IMG/VR virus record: IMGVR_UViG_3300037454_000603
Span: 15,646-79,645 of that record
DNA length: 64,000 nt
Source: a virus
Lineage: Duplodnaviria; Heunggongvirae; Uroviricota; Caudoviricetes
Direction: 5' to 3' (one strand)
The notes under the pieces are model-generated. The model did no database searches and had not been told where the DNA came from. It saw nothing but the letters and a program-made list of their open reading frames with translations. Numbering within the stretch: position 1 is the first letter of the stretch; every line of letters starts with the position of its first letter. The position numbers were made by a program, and so were the translations under genes. This document shows positions 838-63,476 of this stretch, piece after piece.

Positions 838-1593
838 TTAAAACCAACTTAAAACTATTTTAACTACCTTAAGCAAATCTTCAAAGTTTTCTTTAACTTC
901 AAAAACTTCTCTTATTTTCTTCTTTCTCCAATTTTCACTTAGAACTACTTCAATTCCCTTTTCTCCCAAACCAACTTTCTTCTTCTTCTTAACTTTTATT
1001 TTAACTTCTTCCTCTACTTCTACTATTACTACTAAAATTGCTCTTATTAGATTATAGTAATAGTTACAGCTCTTATCCTTAATTTCTTCTCTTATTTTAT
1101 TCTTATAGTAGATTGGTCTTTTACACAATTCTTTAATTACTTCCCTATTAACCTTTTCATCTAGGCTTTCTTCCTCTAATGTGCCGCCCTACCATAAGAT
1201 TTCTTCTCTTAATAAATCAGTTTTTACAGTAACAACTGCCTTTGTTCTTCCTTTCTCCCAATCTTTATCTGCTTCTTCTTTTTTTAATTGCGGCATTCTA
1301 CTACTTATTCTATTTGAGTTATTATTAATTAAATGAGCACTTACTTCTCTTCCCATTTTACTTTGATAGTCGTTATAGTAATACTCTTCTCCTTTAAATA
1401 CTACTATTGAACGCAATTGATTTGCTAATTGTTTTAATTGAACTTCTCCAATTTCTTCTTCTTCTGAAATTATTGCAACCAATTTAAAAACTTCTTCAAA
1501 GCCATTCTTTAAGAAAATAACTCTTTCTGGATTCTTTTCTGTTGTTCCTTCTATTAGCTTTTCTACTAAAAGAAAATTTTCAACTCTCTCCAA
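838..1593 (-). CDS. Hypothetical protein with a K/E-rich C-terminus. Has an in-frame TAG at 1189-1191, read through as sense. The start codon is uncertain (TTG at 1591-1593, or internal).
   Basis: ORFs 1189-1593 and 838-1128 are in the same frame, joined across a single TAG; a TAA lies in frame upstream; the 16-mer TGGTAGGGCGGCACA spans the TAG. Confidence 0.45.
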
Positions 1594-1836
1594 ACTTGGA
1601 GATCTTCTTATATACTAATATAGGTAATATTTCATTTAAACTGACCCCCTTTTAATTTTTTAAACCCCCGTTTTATTTTGACCCCTATTTGATTTGAACC
1701 GACCCCGTTTTTTTTATTTTTTCTGCCGCCCCTCTATTTTTTAAGTAGGAATTTTTAGCTAGCCCTCTATTTATTTTATTATTATTATATTATTATATAT
1801 ATACTATATATATTATTATTGTAATATTAGTAAGAT

Positions 1837-1880
1837 GGATAATTTCTATCCATTTAAATGGATAATTTCTATCCATTATC
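1837..1880. promoter_or_regulatory. Two tandem copies of a 19-bp perfect palindrome ATGGATAATTTCTATCCAT. Looks like an operator for a dimeric DNA-binding protein.
   Basis: Exact duplicated palindrome in non-coding DNA between gene 838-1593 and the initiator-like gene 1916-2338. Confidence 0.5.
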
Positions 1881-1915
1881 TTTTCTTTAACCTTGCGCCG
1901 GCAGAGCAAACCACT

Positions 1916-2338
1916 TTAATCTATTTCTTGTTTTAAAGAACTCCCCTCAAAATATTCCTCTCTATATGGCCCGTCATTATCTCCAAACTCGACAAAAATA
2001 TACCCCATAAAATTAGGGAATAATTCTGCAGGTCTAAGAAAACCATTTTCAATTAGTTCTTTTATCCCTTTATCATAAGTAGCTTTTGAAATATGGCAAG
2101 CTTTTTGAACTTCTTTACCTGACAAGGCAAACTAATAATTGTCAATATTCATATTAAACCAAGTCCAAATTTTAAAAGCACTAGGAGAAAGTAAATAAAT
2201 AGCAAATTTTATCGCATCAAGTCTAAAGAGAGAATAAAGATTATCTTTATTTACCTGTGCTTTTTTAATCCGTATAGCTTTTTGTTTTCCTTTAACATTC
2301 GGAATAGCATACCGCTTATTTTCCTACATCTTCGGCAT
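1916..2338 (-). CDS. Phage replisome-organiser/DnaD-like N-terminal HTH domain protein (FKIWTWFNMNIDNYQFALSGKEVQKACHISKATYDKGIKELIENGFL). Two in-frame TAG codons, including codon 5.
   Basis: Translation with TAG read as sense gives a contiguous 140-aa protein; RBS GGAGGGGGG is 8 nt before the ATG at 2336-2338; a GC-rich structured leader lies at 2340-2440. Confidence 0.55.
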
Positions 2339-2657
2339 TATAACAACCCCCCTCCATTGTTCCTTGCTGGTCGCTTCGCTCCCAGCGTTCGAAACTTCCG
2401 CCGCTACCGCGGCTCCGTTTCAAACTTATTTTTGTTTTTGAGCTATTTATATTACTATTATTATATTATATATATTAATATAATTATTATTTTAGTAAGA
2501 TGTAAAAATTTTTTCAATTTGTGCCGCCATATTACAAGTTTATTATTATTATTATTATATTATATATAATATATATTATATTAATTATTATTTTAGTAGG
2601 TGTATTAATTTTTAGTACACGAAGCAATTTTTTTCTACTTCACCGCGGCACCATAAC

Positions 2658-2873
2658 TTACCACTTAGTATCAATAAGTTCAACAATTTCCCACTTAACA
2701 TTAGAGCAATGCTCCTCTGCAAATACTTCTGCCTGTCTCTGGCTAAACCAGCACTGTAAGAGAATTCCTTCATTATTAGAGCTATCTTCCAAATCAAAAA
2801 CTCCAAAAAAAGGGTCTCCGCCACTTGTTACTAAAAGCTCTTCCGATTCATTCATTATACAATAAAGTCTCAT
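2658..2873 (-). CDS. Hypothetical small protein
   Basis: ORF with AAGGAG RBS 7 nt upstream. Confidence 0.5.
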   Translation of the reverse strand: MRLYCIMNESEELLVTSGGDPFFGVFDLEDSSNNEGILLQCWFSQRQAEVFAEEHCSNVKWEIVELIDTKW

Positions 2874-3070
2874 TTAACTTCTCCTTCTTCTTTTTCGGCG
2901 GCATATTTTTTAATTGCCTTACTATATTCTTCAAATAATTTTTTATCATATTCCTTTGAATATGCCCATCTTTTTACTAATAAATCCGTATACCATTCTA
3001 TACAATCATTAGCTATTTTTTCTGCTAAACTGTCAAGGAATTCTTCAATTAATTCTTCCACAACTTCTCC
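2870..3070 (-). CDS. Hypothetical small protein (VEELIEEFLDSLAEKIANDC...). Likely GTG or ATG start just downstream of a GC-hairpin/SD module.
   Basis: ORF 2870-3199 on the track; the N-terminal MVWRRRVNGG is encoded by the repeated module ATGGTCTGGCGGCGCAGAGTTAATGGAGG, which also occurs at 5623. Confidence 0.4.
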   Translation of the reverse strand, partial: GEVVEELIEEFLDSLAEKIANDCIEWYTDLLVKRWAYSKEYDKKLFEEYSKAIKKYAAEKEEGEVK

Positions 3071-3098
3071 TCCATTAACTCTGCGCCGCCAGACCATT

Positions 3099-3325
3099 TC
3101 ATTTATTCTTCTCCTTTGTGAACAAATCACGAGCTTTATATAAAGCCAGAAGTTCAAGTCTAATATCTGGTTCATGAATTTTGCCGTCTGAATATCCATT
3201 TATGAAAACATCTATTTCTTTGATGGCTATCATACGATCGAGAACTTCTAGCAGGTTGATTTTGTTCTTCATTATAGCATCAAGTTTTTTATTGGCAGCT
3301 GTTTGTATGTCACCTCTAGTCATTT
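3099..3325 (-). CDS. Hypothetical small protein (MTRGDIQTAANKKLDAIMKNK...)
   Basis: RBS GGAGGAAACAAA then ATG at 3323-3325, immediately after GC hairpin 3343-3381. Confidence 0.5.
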
Positions 3326-3342
3326 TGTTTCCTCCTTCTAGA

Positions 3343-3381
3343 TTGTGCCGCCCTACCAAACTTCTATCAAGGGGCGGCGCG
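3343..3381 (-). repeat. GC-rich hairpin element (GTGCCGCCC, 19-nt loop, GGGCGGCGC). Sits between the TAA of the GIY-YIG gene and the RBS of the next gene.
   Basis: 9-bp pure GC inverted repeat in AT-rich DNA; shares the 16-mer TGGTAGGGCGGCACAA with 1180-1195 and 8058-8073. Confidence 0.7.
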
Positions 3382-3387
3382 GTATAT

Positions 3388-4190
3388 TTAGAATCCAAAA
3401 TCTGAATTATCAATCTCTAATTTATCTAATTCTTTTCTCATTCTCTTTAGAATATCAAGGCCTACCTTTTTCTTTTCTGTCTCTTCTAAATTAGAAGTTG
3501 CTTTAGCCTCTTCACTAAATTTAGCATATAGTTCTTTATCATATTCTTTAATATGTCCCGCAAGCCTATTAATTTCTTTTCTTATCTCATCAAGCGGCAC
3601 AGCAGCGTCAGCAGGACAAGAATAAAAGACAAAATGATTATGTTTGTGTTCAACAATATAGCCTTTATCAATTAATTCCTACTTAGCCTTTCTATATGTG
3701 CTTTCTGCAAGACCATAAGCCTACTAAAAATTTTTAGGAGATAAATTAAATTCCCAACCGTCTTCATTTTCTGCAAAATATAAGTATAACTTAAATCCAG
3801 ATGGAGTTAAATTCTTTGCCGCCTCTCTAATTTCATCAATTTCTATATACATAAACTTCATCCCCTTTTCCTTATATTTAGGTTTACATATTTTTCCAAA
3901 TAACTAATTTGGAATTCCTTTTGTTAAATTATAACCATTGTTATATGTATTGAACTTATCAATCCATAAAATTTCTTTATCATCTAATTCATCGACATTA
4001 CATATCTCTAAAATTTCAAAATTGAAATTTTTTATTCCATATTTTTTAAAATCTAAATACAAAGGATTAGTGTTTAATCCCTCGCTATTTCGATGCTCTC
4101 GCCATCTTCTCTTAATATCTATCGACTATCCAATATAAGATTTACCATTTATTTTGTTTGTTATTTTATAAATTCCTATCATACACTATC
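3388..4190 (-). CDS. GIY-YIG homing endonuclease (MIGIYKITNKINGKSYIG-TAG-S...RRWREH) fused to a C-terminal DnaD/replisome-organiser-like HTH domain. At least five in-frame TAG codons.
   Basis: GIY..YIG and R..EH motifs with TAG at the canonical Gln position; TAA stop at 3388-3390; ORF 3388-3600 is its C-terminus. Confidence 0.7.
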
Positions 4191-4268
4191 CCCTCATAAT
4201 TATTTATTAATTTTATTATAGCATTCATTAGCTCTTTTTATTGCATCAGAAAGTTCAGTCTCTATATC

Positions 4269-5038
4269 CTATTCTTTTACTTCTCGAATAACATAGTCTA
4301 TATAATATCGAACTTCAGTTAATCTAAAGCAAGGAATTTTTGCAAGCTTACTATTTACATAATAACTCTCTTCAAAATCAATTAAATCTAAAACTTTTAA
4401 AAACATTAAACTCTCTCTTATTTTTTTATCATTAGCCGTTTGTTTTGTTAAATTAAAAGCATCTCTAATAGTTTCAAATCTAATATCTTTATAATTTTGT
4501 CCAAGAGAGACACAAGTATCTCTATAACTGCAACACAATAAATAAAGCTTCATTTCTAGTTCACTTGCTTGATACTTTTCATTTAGAGTTTCTAATGTAG
4601 TTTCTGGAACAGGGGTCCACCGAGAAGGTCTACTTATCCAATAAACACCATTCTTTTCTTCTTTATTTCGCAAAGACCAAACTCGAAAAGCTTCTTTTTC
4701 CGCTTCTTTTCGTAAAATTGGTCTAGTAGGAGGATTTTCTCCTGTCGGGTCTAGTTGAGATATAAAATTATTATTTTCAATTTTTTGTTCATATTCCCAT
4801 AAAGGAACATGACTATATTGATTTTGTCCTTTAAAAGTGATTCTTCCAGTATATTCCAAATAATACAAATAGAACTTCACAGTCTTATCTGAAATACCTG
4901 TTGCCTAATAAATTTTAGTAAGGACTAAATCTTTCTATCTAAACATTCTGGTATTATCTGGATAATTTGCTAATCCTGCGATACAAACTAAATAGCTATA
5001 TAATTTCATAGAACTTTTAGCAATTTCAATTTCTGATG
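4269..5038 (-). CDS. Replication-initiator-like winged-helix protein (MKLYSYLVCIAGLANYPDN...). Two in-frame TAG codons. Lies next to the iteron array.
   Basis: ORF 4269-4880 continues upstream through two TAG codons to the ATG at 5036-5038; five 22-bp iterons lie directly upstream. Confidence 0.5.
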
Positions 5039-5149
5039 CAGGCATCGGCGCGGCAGTTTTTAACTAAATTTTCTACATATTGGAATTACCTCCTAATTTT
5101 TGATTTCTATAAAGAAGTGAAATTCCAGAAAAATACTTCAAAAAAAATC

Positions 5150-5270
5150 GGTTCGGAATTTTTAATACCGTTCTCGGAATTTTTAATACCGTTTTTAGAA
5201 ATTTGTAACACCAATTTTAGGAATTTTTAATACCGTTCCTCGGAATTTTTAATACCATATAGTATTACTT
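5150..5270. repeat. Five direct 22-bp iterons, (c/t)CGGAATTTTTAATACCGTT. Each is an imperfect palindrome. Candidate origin or initiator-binding array.
   Basis: Seen in the sequence with 22-bp periodicity; adjacent GC-rich hairpins at 5296-5350. Confidence 0.6.
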
Positions 5271-5395
5271 TCTTTTAAAAAGAAAGTAATCAAAGAAACC
5301 TTCTGCTCGGGCGCAGAAGCAGGCCCTGCTCACCGCTTCGCGGTTCGCAATCTTTAAGTAAGAAGAAAAGGAATTTAGTTTTCCTTAACTTCGCG

Positions 5396-5425
5396 CCGCC
5401 AGACCATTGGCGGCCGGCGCAGTAT
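5396..5425 (-). repeat. GC-rich hairpin element GCGCCGCCagaccattGGCGGCCGGCGC, directly after the TAG stop of small gene 5424-5603
   Basis: Inverted GC repeat; the sequence AATGGTCTGGCGGCGC is shared with 5623 and 3070. Confidence 0.65.
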
Positions 5426-5603: not shown

Positions 5604-5622
5604 CATTAATTCTGCGCCGCCA

Positions 5623-5660
5623 GACCATTGGTCCTGTCCGTTGTGGGCGCCGGCGTAACC
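5623..5660 (-). repeat. GC-rich hairpin/SD module (copy of the 3070 module)
   Basis: 30-nt near-identity with 3070-3100. Confidence 0.65.
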
Positions 5661-5723
5661 TAATTTAGTTTTTAAAGCTTAAAGTTAAAACAAAAGGGAT
5701 AGAAAATTCTATCCCTTTATTCC

Positions 5724-6531: not shown

Positions 6532-6540
6532 GTATTGCGC

Positions 6541-6578
6541 CGCGGTACCACAGCGCAAAATTGTACCGCGGCGCCACG
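6541..6578. repeat. Perfect 12-bp GC inverted repeat GCGCCGCGGTAC, 14 nt, GTACCGCGGCGC
   Basis: Seen in the sequence; lies between tRNAs. Confidence 0.7.
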
Positions 6579-6647
6579 GCACAATTTAATTAGAGGTTCT
6601 AATCGTTTATTTTTCTTTGGTCGTATGAACCTTAAACAGTGGACCGA

Positions 6648-7962: not shown

Positions 7963-7984
7963 TTTCTTATCTCCTTTTAAAATA

Positions 7985-8075
7985 CGTCGCGCCGCCGTCC
8001 CAACTCATGAAGGTCTTTGTTACCCCGCCTATTGACGGAGTTCCCGTCATAAGTGGTAGGGCGGCACAACAAGGC
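7985..8075 (+). repeat. GC-rich element in plus orientation (GTCGCGCCGCCGTCCC ... AAGTGGTAGGGCGGCACAACAAGG)
   Basis: Shares a 16-mer with 1180 and 3343; the motif cctattgacgg is shared with 49118. Confidence 0.6.
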
Positions 8076-9233: not shown

Positions 9234-9311
9234 TTTTTACTTCCTTTCTCATCTTTTCTATATATATTATATCATATTTTTTTAAAAATTTCAAATCTTT
9301 TTTGTTAAATC

Positions 9312-9385: not shown

Positions 9386-9804
9386 TAGGGTAGCGGCTTA
9401 TTTTCAGCTCACGTTGCCCGCCACCGTGACGTTCAAGGCCCATTAACAATTTAAGTCTGCCGCTCTTGCTTACTCAGACTAACTATTGGATGTCAATCCC
9501 TCTTTTGTCGCTAAAAGAATAACGGTTTACTATCGTAAAACTAACGCTACGTTTCTTTATTTTACTTCGCGTCCGTAGTAAACCGAAGCACATCCATGTA
9601 TTAACTTCTTCAAGGAGGGGAACGGCTTCTTAATCATCAAAGCTTAGAACGTTATTTACTCTCCATTAATAGTAGGATTAAGCACCGCAGAAGCAAATAT
9701 TTCGGGCACGTTACTCCGTTTCTTCTTTTTAAGATAGAAGAAATAACTATCTACACACGCTGTGCCGCCGTCAGTGTGTTACCGCGGCACAAAGTAACTT
9801 GAAA

Positions 9805-10732: not shown

Positions 10733-10765
10733 ATTTAAAATACCTTGCGCCGCGGTAACATAAAA

Positions 10766-11029
10766 TTACCACGGCAAATCTTCTGACGTAAGAGGTCCAG
10801 TAAAATCATTTGAAACAATTCCTTCATATCTTGCAACAGTTGCAGCTTCAAAACGATTAATAAATGTTACTCCTTTAAAAAGAAAACCTTCTTCAACATT
10901 ATAAATATGAACATTAAGCATAATAAGTCTATTATAAATTGTGTCGTGTTTGTCGCCAGTCATTATTTGCGGAAAATCTGAATTTTCAGTAAAATAAAAC
11001 TTTACCGCAGGAACTAATAGTCTTACCAT
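10766..11029 (-). CDS. Hypothetical protein
   Basis: Intact ORF; followed by GC hairpin 10746-10772. Confidence 0.5.
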   Translation of the reverse strand: MVRLLVPAVKFYFTENSDFPQIMTGDKHDTIYNRLIMLNVHIYNVEEGFLFKGVTFINRFEAATVARYEGIVSNDFTGPLTSEDLPW

Positions 11030-11046: not shown

Positions 11047-11301
11047 TTAGTTTTCATTGTAATAGCGGTCATCATAAGAATCTTCACCGCCGACCGTTTG
11101 AGAAAGAACCTCATATTCTTCAATATAAGCATCTGTATATACTTTTCTTCGAAGGTCGGCACAACGCTCTTCTGCATCTCTTTTGGTATAATAAATACTG
11201 TCGATTTTAGGAAAACCAAATCTGCTAATAGGCATATAGTTGTTAGAACGTGTAATTACTACATAAACCATATTATTACTCCTTTTATTCTGTGTCGCCA
11301 A
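11047..11301 (-). CDS. Hypothetical protein
   Basis: Intact ORF. Confidence 0.5.
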   Translation of the reverse strand: MATQNKRSNNMVYVVITRSNNYMPISRFGFPKIDSIYYTKRDAEERCADLRRKVYTDAYIEEYEVLSQTVGGEDSYDDRYYNEN

Positions 11302-11547
11302 ATCAATTAATAATCTGTGTGTTAATAACGAATAGTATACTCTGTTACTCCATAATCATAATATCCATATTTCTTATTTTCTTTTTCAATAAAATCCTGA
11401 GCATCTTGTTCATTTGCAAAAACACCTTGAATTGTTTTTATTATAGTATTATTAATAAAATTTTCATACCAAGCTATATAAACTTTATCCATTTTAAAAC
11501 TCCTTTTCTATTTTCTATAATAATTATATCATAAATTTTTATTTTTT

Positions 11548-11802
11548 TCAAATAATTTTATTTAAAATACCTTGCGCCGCGACATCATATTGTTTGTTAA
11601 GATTTATATTGCCGAGAATTTTTATTTTCTTAGGGGTCTTAACTATATCATATCCAGAACTTGACCTTGAATAACCATAATCAAAAAGTTCGGTAGCAAT
11701 ATACTCATTTGGAGAACAACTAAAAAGAACTTCATGCTCATATGAAACCACCACTCGAATTATGTCTTGATACAATATAATAGTTCCTTTTTCTAACTGC
11801 AT
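11548..11802 (-). CDS. Hypothetical protein. Its C-terminus (DVAAQGILNKII) is encoded by a copy of the GC-motif/promoter-flank module.
   Basis: About 40-nt identity with the 10735-10775 region. Confidence 0.5.
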   Translation of the reverse strand: MQLEKGTIILYQDIIRVVVSYEHEVLFSCSPNEYIATELFDYGYSRSSSGYDIVKTPKKIKILGNINLNKQYDVAAQGILNKII

Positions 11803-15672: not shown

Positions 15673-15724
15673 AATACTGTGCCGCCCTATCAATAATTAA
15701 ATAAAAGTTGACACGGCACATCAA

Positions 15725-17849: not shown

Positions 17850-18264
17850 ATATCCCCACTCTAAGTTTATATTGCGAGAGCGGGCACCGCATCTGCCAGT
17901 AGTTTAAAGTCTTCGGTCAGCAAAGGCTCGGACTCTATTTATATTAGCGTCCAATAGTAAGGACGGTTCTTTTAAAAAGGTTTTCTCCTTTAAGCAGTTT
18001 ATTGTTAATACTTAGAACACGTCGATTTAGCCTACGAATCGTCGGCATTAGAGGCTGGGCTATAGCACCACTTTCATTTTCCTCTTTTTTTCTATAAAGA
18101 TTATATCATAAATTTCTTAAAAAGTCAAAATTTCAACTTTTAAGATTTTTATAATCGAAAGGAATCTGGCGGAATTATCAACGGCGCCGCCAGTCACCTC
18201 TTGTTTTAGAAAGGAAGAACAGTTTTAAAACTTGTTCAGGTTTGGAAGAAAAGTGCACCGAGGA

Positions 18265-20567: not shown

Positions 20568-20709
20568 TTTATTCTCCTTTCTTATTTTCTATAATAATTA
20601 TATCATAATTTTTTAAATTTTTCAAATAATTTTTTGCTTATTTCGCGCCGCGGCACCATAATTTTATGTTACGGCGGCGCGTTGTAATTTTAAAGTATGA
20701 TTGAAACTC

Positions 20710-21531: not shown

Positions 21532-21939
21532 TTAATTATTAGTTCTTGGAATCATTTTCAACTCATTATCTGTTATTGAAAGTCGCATTTCTCCTTCAAC
21601 TTTAAACTTATTAAACTGACTAGGTGTCATATACATATAAAAATAATATCCTTTATACAAGGGGCTTTCGACCATTACTCTAACCAATTGCTCCTCATGA
21701 TAAGATTCATAGCAGGAAATTTCAGTTACTTCATAAATTTTAGGCTTATTGCTTTCATGAATTGCCACAGGTATTGAAGAAAACAAGAAGCAAAAACCTA
21801 TTCCCACCACAACTAAACCAAATTCTTCAAAATGATACATAATAGCTACACCGCTCATAGCTAAAATAATTCCAATCACAAGCAATACTGGTACTAACAA
21901 ATTAATCCTCCTTAATACTCTGTGCCGCGAGGCCATCAA
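21532..21939 (-). CDS. Membrane protein (two TM segments)
   Basis: Intact ORF with hydrophobic segments. Confidence 0.5.
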   Translation of the reverse strand: MMASRHRVLRRINLLVPVLLVIGIILAMSGVAIMYHFEEFGLVVVGIGFCFLFSSIPVAIHESNKPKIYEVTEISCYESYHEEQLVRVMVESPLYKGYYFYMYMTPSQFNKFKVEGEMRLSITDNELKMIPRTNN

Positions 21940-25195: not shown

Positions 25196-25270
25196 ACCTT
25201 GCGCCGCGGCACCATTGATGGACAAACAAAAGCAAGCCGCGCGAATTATATCGGCGGCCGGCACGGTATA
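25196..25270 (-). repeat. GC-rich hairpin element (GCGCCGCGGCACCATTGATGG ... GGCGGCCGGCACGGTATATA) immediately upstream of a promoter module
   Basis: Seen in the sequence; same arrangement as 10740, 15690, 20642, 48080 and 53622. Confidence 0.65.
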
Positions 25271-34494: not shown

Positions 34495-34566
34495 TTTAAT
34501 CCCTCTTCATTTGCGCCGCCAGTACATTTAAAAAGGCTTAGTTATAAAAACTAAGCCATAAGCTAA

Positions 34567-41857: not shown

Positions 41858-42141
41858 ATTATTTTATATATATTCTAACCAAGAATATAAATGTTATAAC
41901 CCCACTCCTAGGTTTTATTTTATACGCTCCTATCCCCAGAATAGGTGGCATACAATACCTAAGTCCAAAAGTACCATAGAATTACATCGCGCCGCGACCA
42001 CTATGATATTTCTACTTGTTATAACTTCCCAAGTTTATCTTTAATTAAACCCCTTTCTTTTTAAGGACAAGACACTATTTAAATACAATCAGTTCCCAAA
42101 ACAGATGTTATTTAATAGCTGTAAGTGTCTTTGATGAATGG

Positions 42142-46500: not shown

Positions 46501-46528
46501 TTTCAAAACTCAACTCCTTTATTACAAT

Positions 46529-47441: not shown

Positions 47442-48141
47442 AATTTTCCCTCCTTTATATATTAATTATATCATAAAAAATTAAAAAAGTCAACTAAAAA
47501 GTTGACCTTTAAAATATTAATTATTCCATTTCCCAATATATGCCTATATAATTATCGAATTCCTTAGTTTTATCATTATAGACCTTCAAGACCTCATTGT
47601 TTATAATACGAAAACTATAAGGAGTACATCGCAATTTTTTAGTCATTTTTTTAAACCATTCATCATAATCATAAAAGGAAGGAAAAACAGTATAATTCTT
47701 ATTCAATGACGATCCACCTTTCAATAGATGTATAAATATCTTTATCACATAGAACATAGGTTTCTGCCCATTCCGCTTGACTTAGAAGACAACCAAGCAT
47801 AGATTTAGCATTTACCTTGAATTGAGTACTTCCGTCAATAAGATAAACATCTGCATCTATCTTATCTATAATATTACAAAAATCTTTTACATCTGTAAGA
47901 GTATCAAGTCTAATCTTATTCTTCATTTTACATTACCTCACTTTTTTTTAAATAAATCTAAAAATATATCAAACCCCGCAATATTAAGTAGAAAAATAAT
48001 AAAAGCCAATATAATAATTTTCATACTTTTATCTCCTTTCTATAAAAATTATAACAAAAATTTTTATAAAAATCAATAATTCGCCGCGCTTCCATTTTTT
48101 ACCAATAAAAGTAAAATTCTGGTAGCGCGGCGCATAGTAAT

Positions 48142-53390: not shown

Positions 53391-53621
53391 TATATCTACC
53401 TCCCATATTGTAGTCCCATATATTATAATATAGAAGGAAAGATATTATGGGCTATCCTTGTCGAGAGACTAGCTACTTTCTCTCTATCCTTCTATTTATA
53501 AGTATTAGAAAAATTATTCATATTCAAACTTTTCTTTTTTTTCTGTAATAAGTATATCAAAAATTTTTAAAAAATTCAAATATTCTACTATTCTTTTAAG
53601 AAGATAGACTTTTTACTTATT

Positions 53622-53690
53622 CCGCGCCGCCGTACCATATATTTATCCAATATCTAGCTCTTGTCCACTATGGGCGCCGGCACAACGTAA
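53622..53690 (-). repeat. GC-rich hairpin element upstream of promoter module 53540-53590
   Basis: GCGCCGCCGTACCATAT ... GGGCGCCGGCAC. Confidence 0.6.
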
Positions 53691-56582: not shown

Positions 56583-59500
56583 AAAAATATTAATCGTTCT
56601 AACCGTTCCAGCTATGTAATAAGAAATAGAAATAAGACTTATTGTTTTGTGTTGATATTGTATAATTAAGTTCCAAAGCTCCATAAGTTAAATGACTTTC
56701 AAAAATAATATCTCCAATTTGGAGGGAACCTAAATTTATATTACTATCTATAACCTTAATACCTTCTCTTAAAGTACCGCCGTCTGAAAATTGACCAATT
56801 CTAAATGAAAAATATCTAGTATCATTATCATTAGCTAAAAAGTTTTCTATTCTTTCAAAAAGTTCCTAATCGGCAGAACTTACCGATGGTTTTCCTCTCA
56901 TTAGCCATCTAGCGTATTTTTTAAAACTAATTTCGAAATCTTGCTAAGTCGCAATGCCGCTAGGTAATGAATCAAAAAAGTAAACTTTTAACAAATTACC
57001 ACTTTCACCATAATAAAAATTGCCAGCATTTCCAGAGGAACCTATTAAATTTCCACTAAATTGACCAGGAGTTAATGCAAGACCTTGAAATTCTTCATTT
57101 ACTTCCGTCTATGAAAAAGCAATATAATTCCAACAAGCGGATTGAGTGGCATTACCTATAACACAATAATTCGTTACAACGAAGGGAATTGTATCGCATG
57201 GGCTCGAAGCTAACTCACCTAAATAGAAACCTTTAACTGGTTTTTTAGTTGCGGTTGTACTAGGATCGAGAGGAGGGGCAGGAGGTGGATTAGAACCGTG
57301 GCTAACAAACTAATCAATATTTAAATTAGATTGTGCCATATCTGTTGATTGCATAGTTAAAATCCAAGTATCAACTATTCTTTCTCCTTCTCCCGCGACT
57401 TCATGAGCTACATCATAAACTCTTAAAGTCATAGTTAATCCCGTAAAGCTTTCATTATAAGTTGCATCGAGTGATACTGGTACAACTCTTAACATGCCAT
57501 ATGGATTCATTCCACTAGGAGTTACACTTCCTGCTCCAGAGAAGTTAGTTACATAAAACTCATTTTCTACATCATAGGCATCTATTCTATCTTCATAAAG
57601 TAAAGGATTGATTGAAATATTATTTGTATCAGCAAAATAATATAAATAAGTTCTATTAAGATTTCTATCATAAAGAATAACACCTGGATAATATTCTGAA
57701 TAATAGTAATTATGAGAATAGTTATTCATTCTGAAGTAAGGAACAATACATAGGTTACTCTCTGAATACTGCGAGAATAAATATCTTAGCTAACCCTATG
57801 CATATTGTAGCGCCGAGAGACCAGTTCTGCTACTATTATCAAAATCATCAAACTTAACATAATTTCTTAAATCGTCAACTGGAACAGGAACAACTTCACA
57901 GTGAACGTCTTTATAGAAAGGTTCCTAAGATAAAACCGCATACATAGCCCATAAATACTGTGTATTTTGCCAAAGTTGAATTAATTCATTCAAAATTGAA
58001 TCAAGTAAGGGCTTTAATTTATTGCCAAAAATAAACTCACAAATTCCAGTTAAAACTTCACTAATAACCCAGAAGTTTCTATTTAAATCTTCAACCTCGA
58101 CATATCTTAGATATCGCGGCATTAGTAAACGAATCCAATTGCCTTTTTCGTTTGTAAAATCTAAATTATCACTATATTCAATAACAGCTCTAATTGCATC
58201 TGGGTCTCGTGCCTGTTGATAAGATGTCCCACTTTTATTTTCCCAAGGAATAACCCAAGTCGTATCATCTGAGCATTCCCATCTAAAAGAATTACCTGCA
58301 TCTGCATTCTTTAAATCTCCAACTTTAACACTGCCATATAAAGTAGCATTATCCCCAAAACTTCCGTCAAAATCGCTTGCAAGTTGACAAATGCTTTCAT
58401 TCCAGAACTAATTGCCAGATTCACCTAAATAGTCTGTTAAAGTTGAATTAAAATCTATTGAAGCATCTATATGTCCGAAAACAGTATCGTTTCCAATTGC
58501 GCTGCCTAAGAAAGGCCCTTCGGGAGAAAGAATAATTCTATCAAGCATACTTGTCCATATATTATTAATAGAGGCAGACAAACTTGATAAAGTAGAAGAA
58601 TTAAAATCATTATAATTTAACTAGCTATTTTTATCATATAAATCCTAAAATAACTAATCAAAAGTTGTATAAGCCATTTAGTTTATCACCTCTTTTATTA
58701 TGGATTAATATAATCTAAAATTCCACTTGAATCAAAAATATAACCTTTCATTGGAAGAGCCTAGCCAAGACTTCCATCGTTAACATAAGTAGGAGTATTA
58801 TAATTGTCCCAAGTTGGATCATTATCCCATTCTCTAAACATACTTATCTAATCATCAGAAACCTTAAATTTATTATTATCACCATCGTATTCAAAGAAAA
58901 GCTATAAAACGTGAGTATGTCTACCACCAACATAAGTTGCTTTATTGCCTTGTATACTAGAACTGTAGCCATCAAATAAATTCCAAATTCCTGAAACTTT
59001 ATAGTAATGCTATAAAACATAGGTAACTGTATGACCAACTCCTCCGCCGGCAATATAATCATTAATAGCATCTATTACTTCTTGCTAAGTCGGATTATCT
59101 GGTAGACCTAATTCATCAGCTGTTACATACCAATATCCAGTGGCACTTCCACCAGTTACTACTATTTGTTCAACAGTATTAGTTTCTTTGTTAAAATGAT
59201 ATAAGACCTGTGCCGTAGTTTGAGCATTAACTCTATAAATTGTTTCATTAGGTTTACTTGTAGCATTAAGCTACGGAAGTCTCCATTTGTCTGAAGAACC
59301 CTAAGCAGGATTTTCTCTTAAAAGACTAGCGGGGAAATTTCCCACGAAACCTTCAGCTTTATTAATAGGAATAACAGTATCTATAAAGCCCACTGTGACT
59401 CCATTCTCATCATTAATTGGATACGAAAATTTATATCCATCAATATCAATTTCTGGTAGGTCTGCACTATCTAAATATTCCATAGGAACATATCTAACAT

Positions 59501-61780
59501 AATGACATAAAATATTCTAAGTCCAATACCCCTAATAACCTTGCGCCGCCCCCTCATAACCTCCAAGCCAAGAAGAAACACCAATTGAAGTTAAAATATA
59601 ATTAATTTTATTTTTATCAAGATAATCTTCGCTATCCACTTGTTCAAATGCATATTGAAGATATCTCTAACTCATATCTGCACTTAAACCTTTTAGACCA
59701 CAAACGTTACTAAGATTATTTCTTTTATTAAATTTAACTTCGCTTTTATCATTTATTTTAAAGAAAGATAACTTCCAGTCATCATTAACTTTTTCAAGCT
59801 TTTCTGACATAAAAACGGCTTCCTAGGTCTAGTCAGTTGGGCTAAGCGGATTCTAAGAATCATGATTATTAAAATATCCTTGAATACTATTAAGTCCAGA
59901 AGTAGTTCCCGCGGCACCAATAGTCAAATTACATTTATATCCAGTTCGTTTTCCAGAACTGTCTAAAACTTCTCTTACAGGACCATTTATATTAATAGGA
60001 GCTTGCATTGTAACTGACTAACCTACAAGACTTTCTATATTTGTTCCTTTAGGAAAATATTCACCAATTTTTAACAAAGTTCCCTAATTAGCAATTGATA
60101 ATCCTTTAGTATCATACTCAACCTAACCGCCAACCTCATAAGAAGAATAATCATAATCTGTCACTAATTCTCCTTTATAACAATTATCGCCAGAATTCCT
60201 TGCTGTAAACTATACTGGTAGTCTATGTTTAACTTCTTCTTCAAGAGAGGTTCTAAATATAACTTCACTAGTATTATTAATAACTGTAGCTTGATCTGAT
60301 TCAACCACTCCAACAAGTGACTTAGTTCCAAAGATTAATCTTTCAGCGGCATCATAGAAATTAAAAGATATATCTGCGTTTAAAAAGTCGCCGTCTCTCA
60401 CGCATCTCAAAACAGGTTTAACTTCTAATTCTGTTTCATATTTATAATTGTTTTGAGTAGATTCAAGTATCATATCTCTTGTTTCTAAAAGCCCTCTAGA
60501 ATTATAGTATAAATAAAGTCCTGAATAGGGGAAAAAGTATTTAGTATGTTCGTTATTAATGCCATACAAATATCTTCCAAAAAATCTACCAGCAGCGCGT
60601 GCCTAGCGGGCTGGTGCCACTTCATTCATTGGTACAGTTACGTCAATACCAAAAGTTAAAGGCGCTTTAGTGGCATAGAAAGTACCTCCACCTTCTAAAT
60701 CCTAAAGACCATAATAGGAACTAAGAGGTTTAAAAGTTTCAACATTTCTAGCTCTATCATAAAAATATAAGAAAGGATAAGATTCATAATAATAATAATT
60801 ATGTTCATAATTCTAATACCTAATACAAGGAAGCACACATAAATCATACTTTGAATATTTTTGCTTTAAAAACTAAATACTTTTTTTAATCTTTTGAAAG
60901 TTATGATTATTATTTTCTGGCTTTTCAAGAAAAGGCGGATATTCTTCATCAATATCCCATCCATTATCAAAGTTATCATATTTCTTATGTGGCTAAAACT
61001 CATTATTGGGAATATAAAGAACTTCACAATGTACACCTTCAATCCTCTACTGTTCCGCCGCAAGCAGTCCCGCGGCAACCCAAAGATATAACATATTTTC
61101 CCAAAGTTCACCAAGTTCTGTAATCAATCCTTCTATAATATCTTTCAATCCTTCTGGACCAAGCAAAAACTAGCATGCGCCAGAGATTACACTACTAATA
61201 ACCCAAAAGTTTCTATTTAAATCTTCAACTTCAACTCTACGAGTATTCATTGGCATTATTAATCGTATTGCGTTTAAAGCATCACTCTAACTCTTTGGAG
61301 AAGTAAACTAAAGTTGTGTGCCGTTTTGTATTACAGCTAAGCACTCATCGTAGCGACAAGTATTATAGTCATTATTACTTAAGTTTTTCCAAGGACGAAC
61401 AAAGTTTTCTGTGTTCTAAAAAGATAGTCCCGCGTCCCCATTTCGTAAATCATATATTGTAAATATATTATTAAAATTTCCATTAGCAAATAAAGTTTCA
61501 TTTTTATCAATTAACGCTTGAATACTTTCATTCCAAAAAGTATCTCGCTCTTGACCTGGCTCGGGATCAGGTAAATGAATAATATAATCATACAAGTCTC
61601 CTAAATCAGCTTTTTGCTGGATTCGACCAAATAGAGTTTGTATATTTGTAATGTTCTCTTTATGTAGCAATCCTTCCTAATTTTTATATGCCGCCAGCCT
61701 ATCTTTCCAATAGTTTATCTTGTCTGTATTGGATAAAAGCTTAGATAAATCCTCAATATTGGGATTATAATTAATCGCCA
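56583..61780 (-). CDS. One or more very large structural ORFs (tail-fibre or receptor-binding-like) dense with in-frame TAG codons. Internal boundaries unresolved.
   Basis: Continuous minus-strand coding frame across TAG codons; track ORFs 57310-57729, 60210-60569 and 61416-61670 are fragments; no promoter modules inside. Confidence 0.4.
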
Positions 61781-62107
61781 TTAACCTTCACCACCACTAT
61801 CCTCTTCTTTATTAATTTGAAATCTATTCCAAATATCCTTCAAAGAATCGAATCCATTCATGGCAATAAAAGCAGTTATAAAACCAACAATTATACCAAT
61901 TCCAACTGCTTTTAAAATTAAGCCGTAGCATATAAAAGAAGCTATCATGCATACTAAAACTCCTACAATTAATGTTAAAGCTTTTGTTGGAAATGATTTT
62001 GGTAATACTTGCTTTAAAACTTGAACAATAATTGATGTTATCGCGGCAAGAACACCTAAATCAGTTAAAGTCGCACCAGTTGTTAAACCTAAAATCTGTT
62101 CTAACAT
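61781..62107 (-). CDS. Holin-like small membrane protein (three TM segments)
   Basis: Hydrophobic segments; position in the lysis/structural block. Confidence 0.4.
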   Translation of the reverse strand: MLEQILGLTTGATLTDLGVLAAITSIIVQVLKQVLPKSFPTKALTLIVGVLVCMIASFICYGLILKAVGIGIIVGFITAFIAMNGFDSLKDIWNRFQINKEEDSGGEG

Positions 62108-62109
62108 TA

Positions 62110-62640
62110 TTCTCCCTCCTGTTCATTAGGAACAAAAATAATTCTTTCATCTTGACTATGATTAAGAAATCTTTGAGTCCATGCTGTATACTAATCGTCG
62201 GACATTTTAACATGGGATGGATAACATATATGGAAATAAATATCTTCATTATTCTAAAGATTCGTTCCATTTATTATCGCATTCACCTATAAATTGCCTT
62301 TATAAGTCTTACCCTAAGCAGTAGAATTAACAAGAAAATTATCAGGAATGTCTTCTATTCTTACGTTAGCGGGTAAGTTTAATATATCTTGAGTTAAAAG
62401 GTCTCCAAAAATAACTTGACCGTCGTTTCCAGTTATCTCTCTCATGGCTCATCACCAGATGGAAGATTATTATAAATATTTTCAAATGCTTGTTTTACAT
62501 TATCATGAACGAAATAAACATTTTCATCTGAGCCCTTAGTATACCCAGGCTAATCGAATACTTCATCTTCTAATTCAGCGATATCTAAATTAGTCTTTAC
62601 ATCCTTGTGTACATGCATGCATTCACATTCAAAAGTTGGA
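62110..62640 (-). CDS. Hypothetical protein with many in-frame TAG codons
   Basis: Open frame only if TAG is read as sense. Confidence 0.3.
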
Positions 62641-62734
62641 TTAGGCATCTGAAATCCCTCCCTTTATTTTATTTTCTATAATTAAGTAATAATTCCTTTG
62701 ATAGAATACAATAGTTTGATATATCTCTGCCAAT

Positions 62735-62766
62735 GTTTGAATTATTCTATTGAATATGTTATAATT
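62735..62766 (+). promoter_or_regulatory. Plus-strand sigma-A-type promoter TTGAAT, 17 bp, TATAAT
   Basis: Perfect hexamers and spacing upstream of the plus-strand gene at 62799. Confidence 0.55.
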
Positions 62767-62798
62767 ACTATAGAAAATAAAAAAGGAGGAATTGCAAA

Positions 62799-63004
62799 TG
62801 AAAAAATATTTAGTTACTTTAGCGGCACCATCTTTAGGTTTAATACATGAGAACGAAAATTATATTGAACCTTATATTGTATCAGCTGAAAATTTAGATG
62901 AATTATCTTTTTATGTGGATAATAAACTAATGAGAAAATTTGCATTGGATTATAAAGTTGCTCTCTCCGATGTAAGAATTCTCTTCGCTGCAGCACTAAA
63001 GTAA
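62799..63004 (+). CDS. Plus-strand small protein MKKYLVTLAAPSLGLIHENENYIEPYIVS...
   Basis: RBS AAAGGAGG 7 nt upstream; terminator at 63005-63035. Confidence 0.5.
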
Positions 63005-63035
63005 GATGGGCCTCTAACCCATCTTTTTTATTATA
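63005..63035 (+). terminator. Intrinsic terminator GATGGG-cctctaa-CCCATC then TTTTTTATT
   Basis: Stem plus T-run. Confidence 0.6.
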
Positions 63036-63067
63036 AAACTTTTAATTATAATACGCAAATGTTTAGC

Positions 63068-63104
63068 TTAAAAGCCATCTATTTAAATTAATAGATGGCT
63101 TTTA
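63068..63104. terminator. Bidirectional terminator AAAAGCCATCTAT-ttaaatta-ATAGATGGCTTTT
   Basis: 13-bp palindrome flanked by A and T runs. Confidence 0.6.
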
Positions 63105-63125
63105 CTAATTCTTTTATAAAATTTT

Positions 63126-63398
63126 TATCTTCAAAATTGAGCACAATTGAATCCAGAGCTAAAGAATATTTATTTAGTAATAGTTCTAAAAGCTCAATTG
63201 TTTTCTAGTAGCTTCTCTTTCCAAAAACAACTATTTGTATAATTTCGCCGCCGTCCATGACTTTCCAACATTCACGATTTTCTACAAAGTAGCCAATAGA
63301 AGAAATTGGTAAATCTTCTATTCTTTGAATAAAATATTCTGATTGAGAAATAAAAGAATTTTGATAAGCATCGTCTAGAAGAAAAACTTCTATTTGCT
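63126..63398 (-). CDS. Small protein MTLRRRSK... with seven in-frame TAG codons. The start codon is embedded in the GC motif ATGACCTTGCGCCGCCGTAG.
   Basis: Open frame only if TAG is read as sense. Confidence 0.3.
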
Positions 63399-63476
63399 AC
63401 GGCGGCGCAAGGTCATTTTTTAATATATAAGAGTTATACTAAAATCCTTTTTCTTTTTTAAATTTAGTTCTTATTC

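Follow-up and report, generated by a model that had tools for sequence, protein, structure and literature searches.

GC-rich hairpins and half-sites at gene boundaries in the early region of a TAG-recoded phage

The early region of an uncultured recoded phage carries a GC-rich element at its gene boundaries in ~25 copies, about half of them with RNA hairpin potential. These elements probably mark transcript boundaries and serve as joints for small-gene swaps. Our best explanation, to which we give about an even chance, is that they are RNA stem-loop punctuation packaged with early promoters and cassette-exchange joints, similar to the promoter-early stem-loops (PeSLs) of T4-type phages (Arbiol et al. 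2010, PMC2839356; Comeau et al. 2014, PMC4122927). The stretch analysed here (the window, 64,000 nt) covers 64 of ~179 kb of the phage genome and has a GC content of 32.4%. In this phage TAG, otherwise a stop codon, is read as an amino acid, and tRNA genes are numerous. The minus strand carries all genes in the window and the functional polarity of the element; strand assignments had been mixed in a preliminary description of this DNA.

Enrichment, architecture and placement

Pure-GC 8-mers occurred 122 times in the window against 12.5 expected, so the excess over base composition reported in the preliminary description is real. TGCGCCGC occurred 13 times (0.09 expected), and the counts listed for GCGCCGCC, GTGCCGCC and GCGCCGCG were confirmed on the plus strand (11, 7 and 8 occurrences; expectation 0.03-0.07 each, first-order Markov). 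Overall, the GC-rich 8-mers exceeded expectation 100- to 260-fold. They constitute one cis-element family, and many of the remaining matches are plain coding sequence: 25 of the 57 GCGGCRC cores on both strands (split 38:19 between the strands) lay in coding sequence or tRNA, and 32 were intergenic (p = 2e-5), intergenic DNA making up 29% of the window. The reported figure of more than 30 hairpins was too high, as an inverted partner arm was found at 13 sites only and ~10 further copies were solo half-sites.

The conserved unit, read on the minus strand, is an ~18-nt G-rich 3' half-site, (A)TGGT-N3-GCGGCRC-A(A/G). A looser partner 5' arm (UUGYGCCGC...) lies 4-60 nt upstream of it in about half of the copies. 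The conserved positions included ATGG (-8 to -5) and T (+11), beyond the GC core; information content outside the 7-nt core was low. The hairpin potential ascribed to the inverted repeats holds, with stems of 7-12 GC-rich pairs rather than 8-12, often lengthened by mixed pairs, and with loops of 4-54 nt.

The elements typically follow stop codons, at cistron or operon boundaries, in three settings: upstream of sigma-A-type early promoters, upstream of ribosome-binding sites (RBSs) within operons, and beside tRNA genes. Spacing varied, from 3 to 41 nt before the -35 and from 6 to 19 nt before the Shine-Dalgarno sequence (SD). About two thirds of the copies had no adjacent promoter and stood before an SD, in tRNA spacers or solo. 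Copies were concentrated in the TAG-free early region and not ahead of the TAG-rich late genes. The promoters are repeated sigma-A-type early modules with a Gram-positive-type extended -10; at promoters 23113, 31488 and 50793 the -35 is embedded in a hairpin.

The copies described directly upstream of promoter modules, at about 10746, 15680, 20642, 25196, 48080 and 53622, were confirmed; in every case the -35 of a repeated sigma-70-type module follows within 3-41 nt. Placement upstream of an SD also stands: the 30-nt module is found at 3069-3098 and 5600-5629 with 97% identity, but the sequence originally given was the reverse complement of the real one. Overlap with start codons (MVWRRR/MTLRRR) was not general, and ATGGTCTGG does not consistently supply a start codon: from its ATG at 5625 and 5404 run dead-end frames of 29 and 10 codons that are out of frame with the real genes. 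The 16-mer TGGTAGGGCGGCACAA, said to occur three times with a TAG inside, has two exact copies (8054 on the plus strand, 3343 on the minus strand) and a third matching at 15/16 positions (1187), the only one in which the TAG is in frame. The individual elements are listed below, with relatives designated by L numbers.

53620..53686, minus strand: inverted repeat GUGCCGGCGCC ... GGCGGCGC; weak hairpin (z = -0.9); -35 at 53579, 41 nt downstream.
48079..48135, minus strand: strong hairpin GCGCCGCGC / GCGCGGCG, 9+3+7 bp (z = -6.1); upstream stop codon 7 nt before, -35 (48076) 3 nt downstream.
41980..42005, minus strand: solo half-site between suppressor tRNA(CUA) and tRNA-Tyr.
34505..34530, minus strand: solo half-site CUGGCGGCGCAA, preceded by a canonical terminator and followed by the SD of gene 34494; orthologues CUGGCGGCAC in L003/L004 and ACCGCGGCGC in L002, despite diverged flanks.
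25196..25268, minus strand: composite element (z = -0.2) with a nested small hairpin, GGCCGCCG-AUAUAAUU-CGCGCGGC, in the 5' arm; -35 (25181) 15 nt downstream; also nested in L010, a simple 12-bp hairpin in L006.
21912..21936, minus strand: solo half-site GAUGGCCUCGCGGCACAGAG, also kept in L010; two genes are 28 nt apart here, and the SD follows the half-site after 9 nt.
20642..20683, minus strand: hairpin CGCGCCGC..GCGGCGCG, extending to ~17 bp (z = -3.5); -35 (20625) 17 nt downstream; compensatory C-G to U-A in L010, 3' half-site only in L006.
18164..18194, minus strand: hairpin CUGGCGG...CCGCCAG (z = -2.2) after a GIY-YIG gene; -35 (18128) 36 nt downstream.
15676..15721, minus strand: hairpin UGUGCCGUG...GGGCGGCACA (z = -3.0) between a canonical U-tract terminator and the -35 (15668); one edge of a 4.9-kb block missing in L010.
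11567..11590, minus strand: solo half-site GUCGCGGCGCAAGGUA fused to a promoter module paralogous to that at 10724; bounds, on the 5' side, a 310-nt cassette missing in L010.
11278..11307, minus strand: degenerate half-site plus SD, UUGGCGACACAGAAUAAAAGGAG; 3' edge of the 310-nt cassette.
10745..10778, minus strand: hairpin GCCGUGGUAA-UUUUAUG-UUACCGCGGC (z = -4.7) overlapping the upstream stop codon; -35 (10724) 21 nt downstream.
9757..9797, minus strand: hairpin UUGUGCCGC...GCGGCACAG (z = -3.4); stop codon 7 nt before.
7984..8072, minus strand: structured 89-nt leader (z = -6.2), preceded by promoter 8185 and followed by the SD of gene 7962; it combines the outer GC helix of the family with another helix and an apex that varies.
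6533..6587, minus strand: hairpin between tRNA-Glu and tRNA-Gln (z = -5.2); its 3' arm stops 6 nt short of the 5' end of tRNA-Gln.
5610..5658, minus strand: weak-fold element (z = -0.4) with 3' end AAUGGUCUGGCGGCGC, after the canonical terminator 5718-5693 and followed by the SD of a 57/69-codon ORF; left repeat of a 221-nt cassette.
5391..5422, minus strand: GCGCCGGCCGCC-AAUGGUCU-GGCGGCGC (z = -1.1), 8 nt past the TAG that ends the cassette ORF in the standard code; right repeat of the 221-nt cassette.
3341..3384, minus strand: hairpin (z = -2.1); a GIY-YIG gene stops 3 nt before it and the SD of gene 3323 follows after 8 nt; 6 nt beyond the hairpin, homology with L011 breaks off.
3069..3098, minus strand: SD module with a solo half-site, AAUGGUCUGGCGGCGCAGAGUUAAUGGAGG, flanked by genes 3323-3099 and 3061-2870; the nearest 100 nt hold no partner arm.
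63395..63415, plus strand: solo half-site in opposite orientation, UGCUACGGCGGCGCAAGGU, the site described as 'MTLRRR'; among very few intergenic copies opposed to the coding polarity.

Folding and strand specificity

Shuffle z-scores of the 13 paired elements were strong (z <= -3) in seven, marginal in two and at shuffle level in four. The coding strand folded better than its reverse complement in 22 of 26 elements from the window and relatives. An alignment of the arms of 23 elements had 81% of cells paired, a percentage inflated by anchoring on the 3' core and each element's own fold; its covariation score was 0.28, compared with 0.20 for shuffled alignments, and 0/500 shuffles reached it. 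Wobbles were asymmetric, with 33 U.G pairs (U in the 5' arm) versus 4 G.U; the 3' arm is constrained in sequence, and the 5' arm drifts from C to U. Together, wobble asymmetry and covariation point to folding of the coding-polarity strand, most simply as RNA. Single-stranded DNA of coding polarity, such as a lagging-strand template, would give the same strand asymmetry. Because solo half-sites are conserved without any hairpin, the G-rich arm is constrained as sequence too, probably by a sequence-specific factor.

No U-tract followed the stem in 12 of the 13 paired elements, and a terminator scan flagged none of them; the exception is the 8072 element, followed by GUAUUUU. Judged by these flanks, a canonical terminator fits none of the elements, and canonical termination is excluded because no U-tract follows the stems. 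Canonical AT-rich U-tract terminators form a separate class in this genome, some directly upstream of the GC element, as at 5658, 15721 and the solo copy at 34519. A 3'-end role at these three sites makes little sense unless read-through is substantial.

Conservation and cassette junctions in related phages

Orthologous sites were kept in related metagenomic phages at 62-94% identity, with compensatory changes, and element positions were stable between genomes at 85-94% identity. The 7984..8072 leader was conserved with covariation in L011, L012, L068 and L070, including a compensatory change from CCA:UGG to UCG:UGA relative to L011; it matched no Rfam family. The tRNA-Gln leader hairpin was found in five genomes, expanded in the window and minimal in L011; its orthologues (L011, L012, L069, L070) kept GCGGCRC and had variable 5' arms with U.G wobbles.

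In these genome comparisons, gene-cassette indels and homology breakpoints coincide with the elements and adjacent promoter modules. The 221-nt ORF cassette lies between direct AATGGTCTGGCGGCGC repeats, and L011 has a single chimeric hairpin there. L010 lacks the 310-nt cassette (half-site, promoter and ORF), with no half-site retained at its empty site, and also the 4.9-kb block, which lies between two hairpin-plus-promoter modules. Homology breakpoints, taken as BLAST HSP ends in two relatives only, fell within 25 nt of an element in 5 of 21 cases against 1.2 expected (P = 0.005). No target-site duplications were found at the junctions examined.

The preliminary description had missed the strand-specific half-site, often alone, the TAG recoding, the conservation and covariation in related phages and the coincidence with cassette indel junctions. 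Its observation was partly confirmed and its interpretation partly supported: the roles it listed include the RNA-level terminator, stability or processing hairpins favoured here, canonical termination excepted.

Candidate roles and known systems

Under the RNA stem-loop reading, the early transcript would fold at the paired copies into stable stem-loops that punctuate a heavily transcribed early region. These may attenuate read-through, or insulate the promoter module that follows from it, and could yield nuclease-resistant ends after processing. The elements and the repeated promoter modules next to them make up composite regulatory cassettes; by genome comparison, these act as homology patches through which small ORF cassettes are gained, lost and exchanged between related phages. 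Counting against this reading are the missing U-tracts, the three elements downstream of canonical terminators, the ~10 conserved solo half-sites, which cannot act as hairpins, and the 4 of the 13 'hairpins' that are at shuffle level.

It is clearly less likely that the half-site is the recognition sequence of a dedicated phage or host factor acting on single-stranded nucleic acid, either an endoribonuclease cutting polycistronic RNA at fixed sites or a recombinase or HUH-type enzyme moving ORF cassettes, in the manner of integron attC sites or REP/RAYT elements. The hairpins would then merely present or mask the site. Conservation of solo half-sites at orthologous positions while flanks diverge, the constrained 3' arm opposite a drifting 5' arm and the direct half-site repeats bounding cassettes all favour such a factor; a variable arm distance is typical for attC and REP pairs, and the strand bias is compatible with single-strand recognition. 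However, the window proteins of at least 125 aa (from 64 of ~179 kb) included no tyrosine or serine recombinase, no Y1/HUH transposase and no dedicated RNase. The L010 empty site without a half-site argues against site-specific insertion there, neither the attC core sites (RYYYAAC/GTTRRRY) nor the REP GTAG head is conserved, and element positions are stable at high genome identity.

We consider it improbable that the elements are selfish miniature palindromes (MITE or yeast mitochondrial GC-cluster type) that spread in AT-rich intergenic DNA and have no phage role. GC-rich palindromes within an AT-rich genome, the nested hairpin at 25268 shared with L010 and absent in L006, and the expanded tRNA-Gln leader element would suit this origin, and solo arms could be decay products. 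It is opposed by positions that persist, with compensatory changes, in phages of as little as ~60% protein identity, strong polarity relative to transcription, consistent placement just past stop codons and just before an SD or -35, and the lack of target-site duplications at the junctions examined.

A middle- or late-class promoter role for the half-site, in full or in part, served by a phage-encoded RNA polymerase or sigma factor, is doubtful to the same degree. It would account for solo copies that stand after terminators and just before an RBS without a sigma-A promoter, such as solo 34519 and elements 5658 and 3089, which lie between a terminator or stop codon and an SD; the conserved ATGG and T also fit, and the G-rich start resembles single-subunit polymerase initiation sites. 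Yet the U.G wobbles and covariation require a single strand to carry both arms, in which case transcription would have to cover the upstream arm as well, and a second promoter is needless for the many copies before sigma-A promoters or in tRNA spacers. The low information outside the core, the concentration of copies in the TAG-free early region and the lack of an RNA polymerase gene in the window also oppose it.

Ordinary Rho-independent terminators of early operons are more improbable still. GC-rich stems directly past stop codons and before the next promoter would suit them, as would the GUAUUUU at 8072 and the efficient termination by PeSL stem-loops in a reporter assay; the missing U-tracts, the negative terminator scan, the separate canonical terminators, and the solo and tRNA-leader copies do not fit. 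Least probable are double-stranded DNA operators for an early-promoter regulator or Chi-like sites protecting against host exonuclease, for despite some promoter-near copies, palindromic arms and a strand-biased core as in Chi sites, arm spacing and distances to the -35 and SD vary, which speaks against a protein operator, many copies lie far from any promoter, U.G wobbles are tolerated on one strand only, and intergenic restriction and partner arms are unexpected for Chi sites.

Several known systems resemble the family in part. Yeast mitochondrial GC clusters are likewise GC-rich palindromes scattered in a very AT-rich genome, some nested and some tied to transcript processing sites, but they are mobile, strain-polymorphic and without transcription polarity, whereas the elements here are position-conserved and strand-specific. 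Integron attC sites share imperfect inverted repeats with a highly variable centre, strand-specific folding, a position at the 3' end of small co-oriented ORF cassettes and repeats that bound presence or absence; the present elements lack the core and inverse-core sequences, the window yielded no integrase, many cassettes have their own promoter and one empty site has no half-site. REP/BIME elements of enterobacteria and pseudomonads, which stabilise upstream mRNA, are also short GC-rich imperfect palindromes, extragenic yet transcribed, at gene 3' ends and between cistrons, single or in inverted pairs of variable spacing. Unlike them, the present family occurs in a phage genome in tens rather than hundreds of copies, has no conserved GTAG head (GGTAG in four copies only) and has no RAYT/Y1 transposase in the window. 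The RNase III processing hairpins found among the early genes of T7 and Bacillus phage SP82 (Panganiban & Whiteley 1983, cited in PMC4838370) are likewise a small set of stem-loops related in sequence, which separate cistrons in early transcripts made by host polymerase and stand just before the RBS; many stems here are shorter than ~two helical turns, and the solo half-sites have no duplex.

The closest known analogue is the PeSL cassette, in which GC-rich stem-loops with sigma-70 early promoters flank ORFan indels and show terminator activity in a reporter assay (PMC2839356; PMC4122927). The present lineage differs in being unrelated and TAG-recoded, with Gram-positive-type extended -10 promoters; its stem-loop has its own motif (GCGGCRC with a TGGT flank) instead of polyG/polyC, has no U-tract and is not promoter-adjacent in ~two thirds of copies. 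The two systems combine a G/C-rich stem-loop with G-T pairs, an AT-rich tract, an SD and a strong early promoter for host sigma into a unit that recurs many times where small ORFs of unknown function are crowded, and the promoters at 23113, 31488 and 50793 correspond to a PeSL subclass with the -35 in the hairpin. In both, two modules flank an ORF cassette in one phage and a relative has a single chimeric module.

Genome setting

The window had a GC content of 32.4% and a negative GC skew throughout, with nearly all genes on the minus strand. When TAG was read as sense, minus-strand ORF coverage rose from 31 to 48 kb, and fragments were fused into ORFs of 1030 and 696 codons (58698-61787 and 56590-58677, minus strand) with 28 and 12 in-frame TAGs, respectively; most small early ORFs lacked in-frame TAG. 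The 26-28 tRNA genes, found on the minus strand only, included two tRNA(CUA) suppressors. TAG is recoded in this phage. A TAG at 5430 closes a small ORF in the standard code, 8 nt ahead of a GC hairpin. A tRNA at 9308-9376 (minus strand) was overlooked by ARAGORN and scored 35 bits in Rfam; at 38890-39008 (minus strand), a tRNA match from Rfam spans 119 nt, perhaps with an insertion or intron inside it.

The minus strand carries about 32 promoter modules (TTGAyw-17-TGnTATAAT) that are nearly identical, each followed by a conserved leader and GGAGG. The exact 21-mer spanning the -10 element and leader matched at least 120 unrelated contigs from rumen and gut metagenomes; among the matches listed, none was close to the window, and GC-stem terminators were common upstream of this promoter type. 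The GCGGCRC family of elements described below was present in 3 of 118 contigs among the listed matches to this word, and is thus confined to a closer clade.

Recognisable proteins included a T4 Rnl1-type RNA ligase, a DUF2828/DUF7788 protein, a UvrD helicase, ThyX, a PF04308 RNase-H-like protein and a second RNA ligase, which is split by an HNH-containing intein. Genes with an RNA-repair flavour lie among the tRNA arrays. At least eight GIY-YIG paralogues, all rich in in-frame TAG, were present, many of them adjoining tRNA genes; a GC element directly follows three of them, and a C-terminal remnant of the first is all that L011, a contig of a related metagenomic phage (as are all contigs with L numbers), retains.

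Features of the window (window coordinates unless a contig is named)
37239-37315 and 42139-42216, minus strand: tRNA(CUA) suppressors
20597-20625, 15640-15668 and 10696-10724, minus strand: examples of promoter modules, leader TATTATAGAAAATAAGAAAGGAG
50796-52457, minus strand: Rnl2/DNA-ligase-type RNA ligase gene with an inserted intein that bears an HNH endonuclease domain
3388-4182, 18265-19065, 26527-27399, 37322-37987, 39019-39777, 40261-41040, 45808-46506 and 48389-49423, minus strand: GIY-YIG homing-endonuclease paralogues
34694-36157 and 25443-26756, minus strand, with L003 13530-14357 and L006 3573-4400: RNA-repair-flavoured genes (DUF2828/DUF7788 protein and T4 Rnl1-type ligase; Thg1-type enzyme in relatives)

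The window sequence is also present in Logan run SRR12681651, and a 178,943-bp JGI contig carries one of its proteins. A megablast of 20 kb gave no close match among cultured phages, and the best match in a phage collection was only 33% identical; phages of this 180-kb, TAG-recoded, tRNA-rich clade, which has no known cultured member, are common in gut and rumen metagenomes, with hundreds of homologous contigs. Given the TAG reading, the promoter modules, the gene content and the lack of a close cultured phage, the window is the early region of an uncultured TAG-recoded phage with promoters of the low-GC Gram-positive type. Short tandem repeats were also observed, a 22-nt unit repeated four to five times at 5150-5257 (inside or beside ORF 4200-5216) and a 20-nt unit repeated four times at 406-485, near the window start. 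In L011, 46-nt iterons (GCCGCCGCAATTAGGTGATGTACTA...) at 9191-9290 coincide with a flip in gene orientation and may mark an origin or terminal region.

Half-site and fold

The preliminary description had reported more than 30 GC-rich hairpins built on recurrent 8-mers. Its 8-mer counts were correct, at 100- to 260-fold over first-order Markov expectation, and pure-GC 8-mers occurred 122 times against 12.5 expected. It often gave the reverse complement; the core on the coding strand is GCGGCRC, with 38 coding-strand copies vs 19 on the opposite strand (p = 0.016). Intergenic sequence, 29% of the window, held 32 of the 57 copies (p = 2e-5). An alignment of these intergenic copies revealed conservation outside the core (ATGG at -8 to -5, S at -1, A at +7 and T at +11), giving the half-site consensus (A)TGGT-N3-GCGGCRC-A(A/G)nGT; the sequence ahead of the core was variable (GGTAGG, GGTACC, GGTCTG, GGTGCC).

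Only 13 sites had a complementary upstream arm, and about 10 copies were solo half-sites with no partner arm within 100 nt (e.g. those at 3089, 21928, 34519, 11580 and 41995). One solo half-site (UAUGGCGGCACAAAU, 2521-2535) lies in an almost pure A+T low-complexity stretch of about 200 nt (2440-2640, minus strand); L011 has different sequence in place of the whole stretch. Pairing with the 16S rRNA 3' region, where complementarity spans only 6 nt, was set aside. An origin from tRNA minihelices was rejected, as GCGGCRC-CA occurred only in tRNA-Ser (37018) and in a tRNA-like 3' half near 17159 and was absent from the other 26 tRNAs. The latter sequence, at about 17140-17180 (minus strand), consists of a tRNA-like T-arm and acceptor 3' strand (..GGGAGUUCAAGUCUCCCCUGCGGCACCA) with no detectable 5' half.

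Full elements are long imperfect palindromes, (A/G)UUGYGCCGC-nn-(UACCA) ... (UGGUA)-nn-GCGGCRCAA, with loops of 4 to 54 nt and, in two elements, nested or additional helices. We compared fold energies with those of dinucleotide-shuffled sequences (z), naming elements by window coordinate (48135 is 48079..48135). Seven of the 13 (48135, 8072, 6587, 10778, 20683, 9797 and 15721) were stable GC-rich stem-loops at z <= -3 (z -3.0 to -6.2; MFE -14 to -47 kcal/mol); two were marginal (18194 and 3384), and four could not be told from the shuffles (53686, 25268, 5658 and 5422). The coding strand folded better than its reverse complement in 22 of 26 elements from the window and its relatives. In an alignment of the arms of 23 elements, anchored on the 3' core and each element's own fold, a choice that inflates pairing, 81% of cells were paired, and the covariation score was 0.28 vs 0.20 for shuffled alignments, a value reached by none of 500 shuffles. 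Wobble pairs were strongly asymmetric, with 33 U(5' arm).G(3' arm) pairs vs 4 G.U; on the opposite strand these 33 would read as C.A mismatches. The same asymmetry is expected from single-stranded DNA of coding polarity, such as a lagging-strand template. Rfam 15 matched tRNAs alone over the whole window at the gathering threshold, and one chance match only in the 8072 region at E <= 5.

Gene borders, relatives and cassettes

Elements start 3-30 nt past a stop codon or overlap it. Two of the contexts proposed earlier were borne out: the 3' arm lies 3-41 nt upstream of a -35 in eight cases, and 6-19 nt ahead of an SD at 3351, 3089, 5620, 7995, 21928 and 34519. Elements 6587 and 41995 lie in tRNA spacers. 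Overlap with start codons (MVWRRR/MTLRRR) did not stand as a general rule and was rejected, as the ATG of AATGGTCTGG was out of frame or opened a dead-end frame at two of three copies and was taken as a start by the gene caller only at 3097.

Relatives, found via homologues of three window proteins and then through their contigs (about 57-94% identity), carry the same element family at the same places. Three genomes have the same half-site, UAUGGUGCCGCGGCRC, at site 20683; the 5' arm there has decayed in L006, and in L010 a C-G pair is replaced by U-A, a compensatory change. A hairpin in the tRNA-Gln leader occurs in five genomes with arms of differing length (GCGCCGC/GCGGCGC, GUGCCGC/GCGGCAC, GUGCUGUGG/CCGCGGCAC and GCGUCGU/GCGGCGC), and every change in its 5' arm is C to U, giving U.G pairs. 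The solo half-site at 34519 is kept in L003 and L002 despite diverged flanks. In a single example, L011 10802, a half-site with minus-strand genes on both sides is flipped to match them. Two helices of the 89-nt leader at 8072 persist in four relatives, where their changes are compensated.

Two-helix leader (85-95 nt) of an early operon
7984-8072 of the window, minus strand
985-1072 of L011
6285-6370 of L012
70-175 of L068
66-170 of L070

This leader, conserved across five phage genomes with compensatory changes, lies ahead of GUAUUUU and an SD and has no Rfam counterpart; it may itself serve as a cis-regulatory attenuator. IMG/VR scans with AATGGTCTGGCGGCGCAGA and with the hairpin plus tRNA-Gln gave no useful match, and all 54 matches to a tRNA-Gln 15-mer were due to chance.

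Differences in gene content were found at the elements. L011 has one hairpin where the window has a hairpin, SD, 57-codon ORF and second hairpin; the 221-nt insert has a direct AATGGTCTGGCGGCGC repeat at each edge, and the single L011 hairpin is a chimera of the window's two. A 310-nt unit (half-site, promoter module, 56-codon ORF and degenerate half-site) is absent from L010, whose empty site holds no half-site. L010 also lacks a 4.9-kb block between two hairpin-plus-promoter modules, with the crossover inside the shared promoter module. At element 3384, homology to L011 stops 6 nt beyond the element, and gene content differs thereafter. Overall, 5 of 21 homology breakpoints lay within 25 nt of an element vs 1.2 expected (P = 0.005), and 7 of 21 lay near an element or promoter module (P = 0.002). 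Comparison of the genomes shows the folding polarity of the elements and their association with cassettes.

Function and comparison with known systems

The enrichment of the family, its polarity and placement and the covariation of its arms jointly support an element acting in cis whose fold forms on the strand of coding polarity; early RNA is the simplest such strand. We infer that the elements are biochemically active and suggest, with moderate confidence, that they are RNA punctuation of the early region. They would attenuate or insulate read-through ahead of the next strong promoter, give nuclease-resistant 3' ends to upstream messages (tRNA leaders included) and define the 5' regions of downstream cistrons. 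A stem-loop marking cistron borders would be a handle for operon annotation, transcript-end prediction, mapping of accessory-gene exchange and comparison with the promoter-early stem-loops (PeSLs) of T4-type phages. RNase III processing sites of the T7 / SP82 type are duplexes about two helical turns in length, in many cases with an internal loop; duplexes of about two turns occur here at 48135, 20683, 8072, 6587 and L006_11281, but not in the stems of 7-10 bp or the solo half-sites.

The conservation of solo half-sites and the sequence constraint on the 3' arm lend some probability to a dedicated recognising factor, putatively an endoribonuclease or single-strand recombinase-type enzyme. We consider it unlikely, and no candidate enzyme was found within the 64-kb window. 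If such a factor bound or cut solo half-sites, it would offer a new sequence-specific RNA or single-stranded-DNA tool. Slightly less probable is the specific proposal that (A)UGGU-N3-GCGGCRC-A is the address of a putative phage-encoded enzyme, a sequence-specific endoribonuclease or HUH/recombinase-type protein, acting on single-stranded RNA or DNA to cut early RNA at cistron borders and/or mobilise ORF cassettes. Were it true, a recoded phage would use integron-like or Cas6-like logic rather than generic stabilising hairpins. Unlike integron attC sites, the elements lack RYYYAAC/GTTRRRY cores, their outer arms ending (A/G)UUGYGCC ... GGCRCAA(Y), and no IntI tyrosine recombinase was found in the window (64 of about 179 kb).

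We regard selfish palindromic elements as improbable, and a phage-specific promoter as equally so. Like REP/BIME sequences, the family is a repeated extragenic imperfect palindrome (13 palindromic copies in 64 kb), but the conserved GTAG head is missing, and no RAYT (Y1 transposase, PF01797-type) was found among window proteins of at least 125 aa (64 of about 179 kb). DNA-hairpin promoters of the N4 type were rejected because of the long loops and of wobble polarity on the coding rather than the template strand. Rho-independent terminators have a GC-rich stem and a U-tract 0-2 nt past its 3' side. No such U-tract follows the stems here, whose tails are AAGGUAUU, GAAAUAAG, AAGGUAAU, AGUAUUAU and AAUUAUUG; 8072 alone has GUAUUUU past its stem. 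A terminator scan of the window flagged no GC element, and ordinary AT-rich U-tract terminators are present, directly upstream of a GC element in three places. The canonical type was rejected for lack of U-tracts and is very improbable. Least probable of all are Chi sites and duplex operators, which were rejected on account of partner arms, intergenic restriction and variable spacing, the last arguing against an operator of fixed geometry.

Of known systems, the PeSL cassette comes closest to these elements. To our knowledge, its mechanism has so far been described for no phages but those of T4 type with Gram-negative hosts. The cassette joins a sigma-70 early promoter and an SD to an AT-rich tract and a GC-rich stem-loop in which G-T pairs occur. 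A reporter assay showed strong terminator behaviour of the stem-loop, and in a sister phage a single chimeric PeSL replaces an ORFan cassette flanked by two PeSLs (PMC2839356; PMC4122927). In both systems a strong early promoter of sigma-70 type, with an AT-rich tract upstream of it, recurs (about 32 modules here), and related phages differ by indels or replacements of ORFan cassettes bounded by modules (221 nt, 310 nt and 4.9 kb here). Stem-loop and promoter are coupled here in eight GC elements and in three promoters with a hairpin over the -35. In these three (23085-23125, 31460-31500 and 50765-50805, minus strand), TTGACT, the -35, forms the 3' arm of a hairpin rich in A+T (AGUCAAAGAA...UUCUUUGACU); a -35 inside a hairpin is also described for one PeSL subclass. 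In contrast to PeSLs, the present family belongs to a different phage lineage, its stem-loop has a conserved sequence of its own, about two thirds of its copies lie away from promoters, and it includes conserved solo half-sites. Because of these differences, the GC family is related in kind to PeSLs and is not a member of that family.
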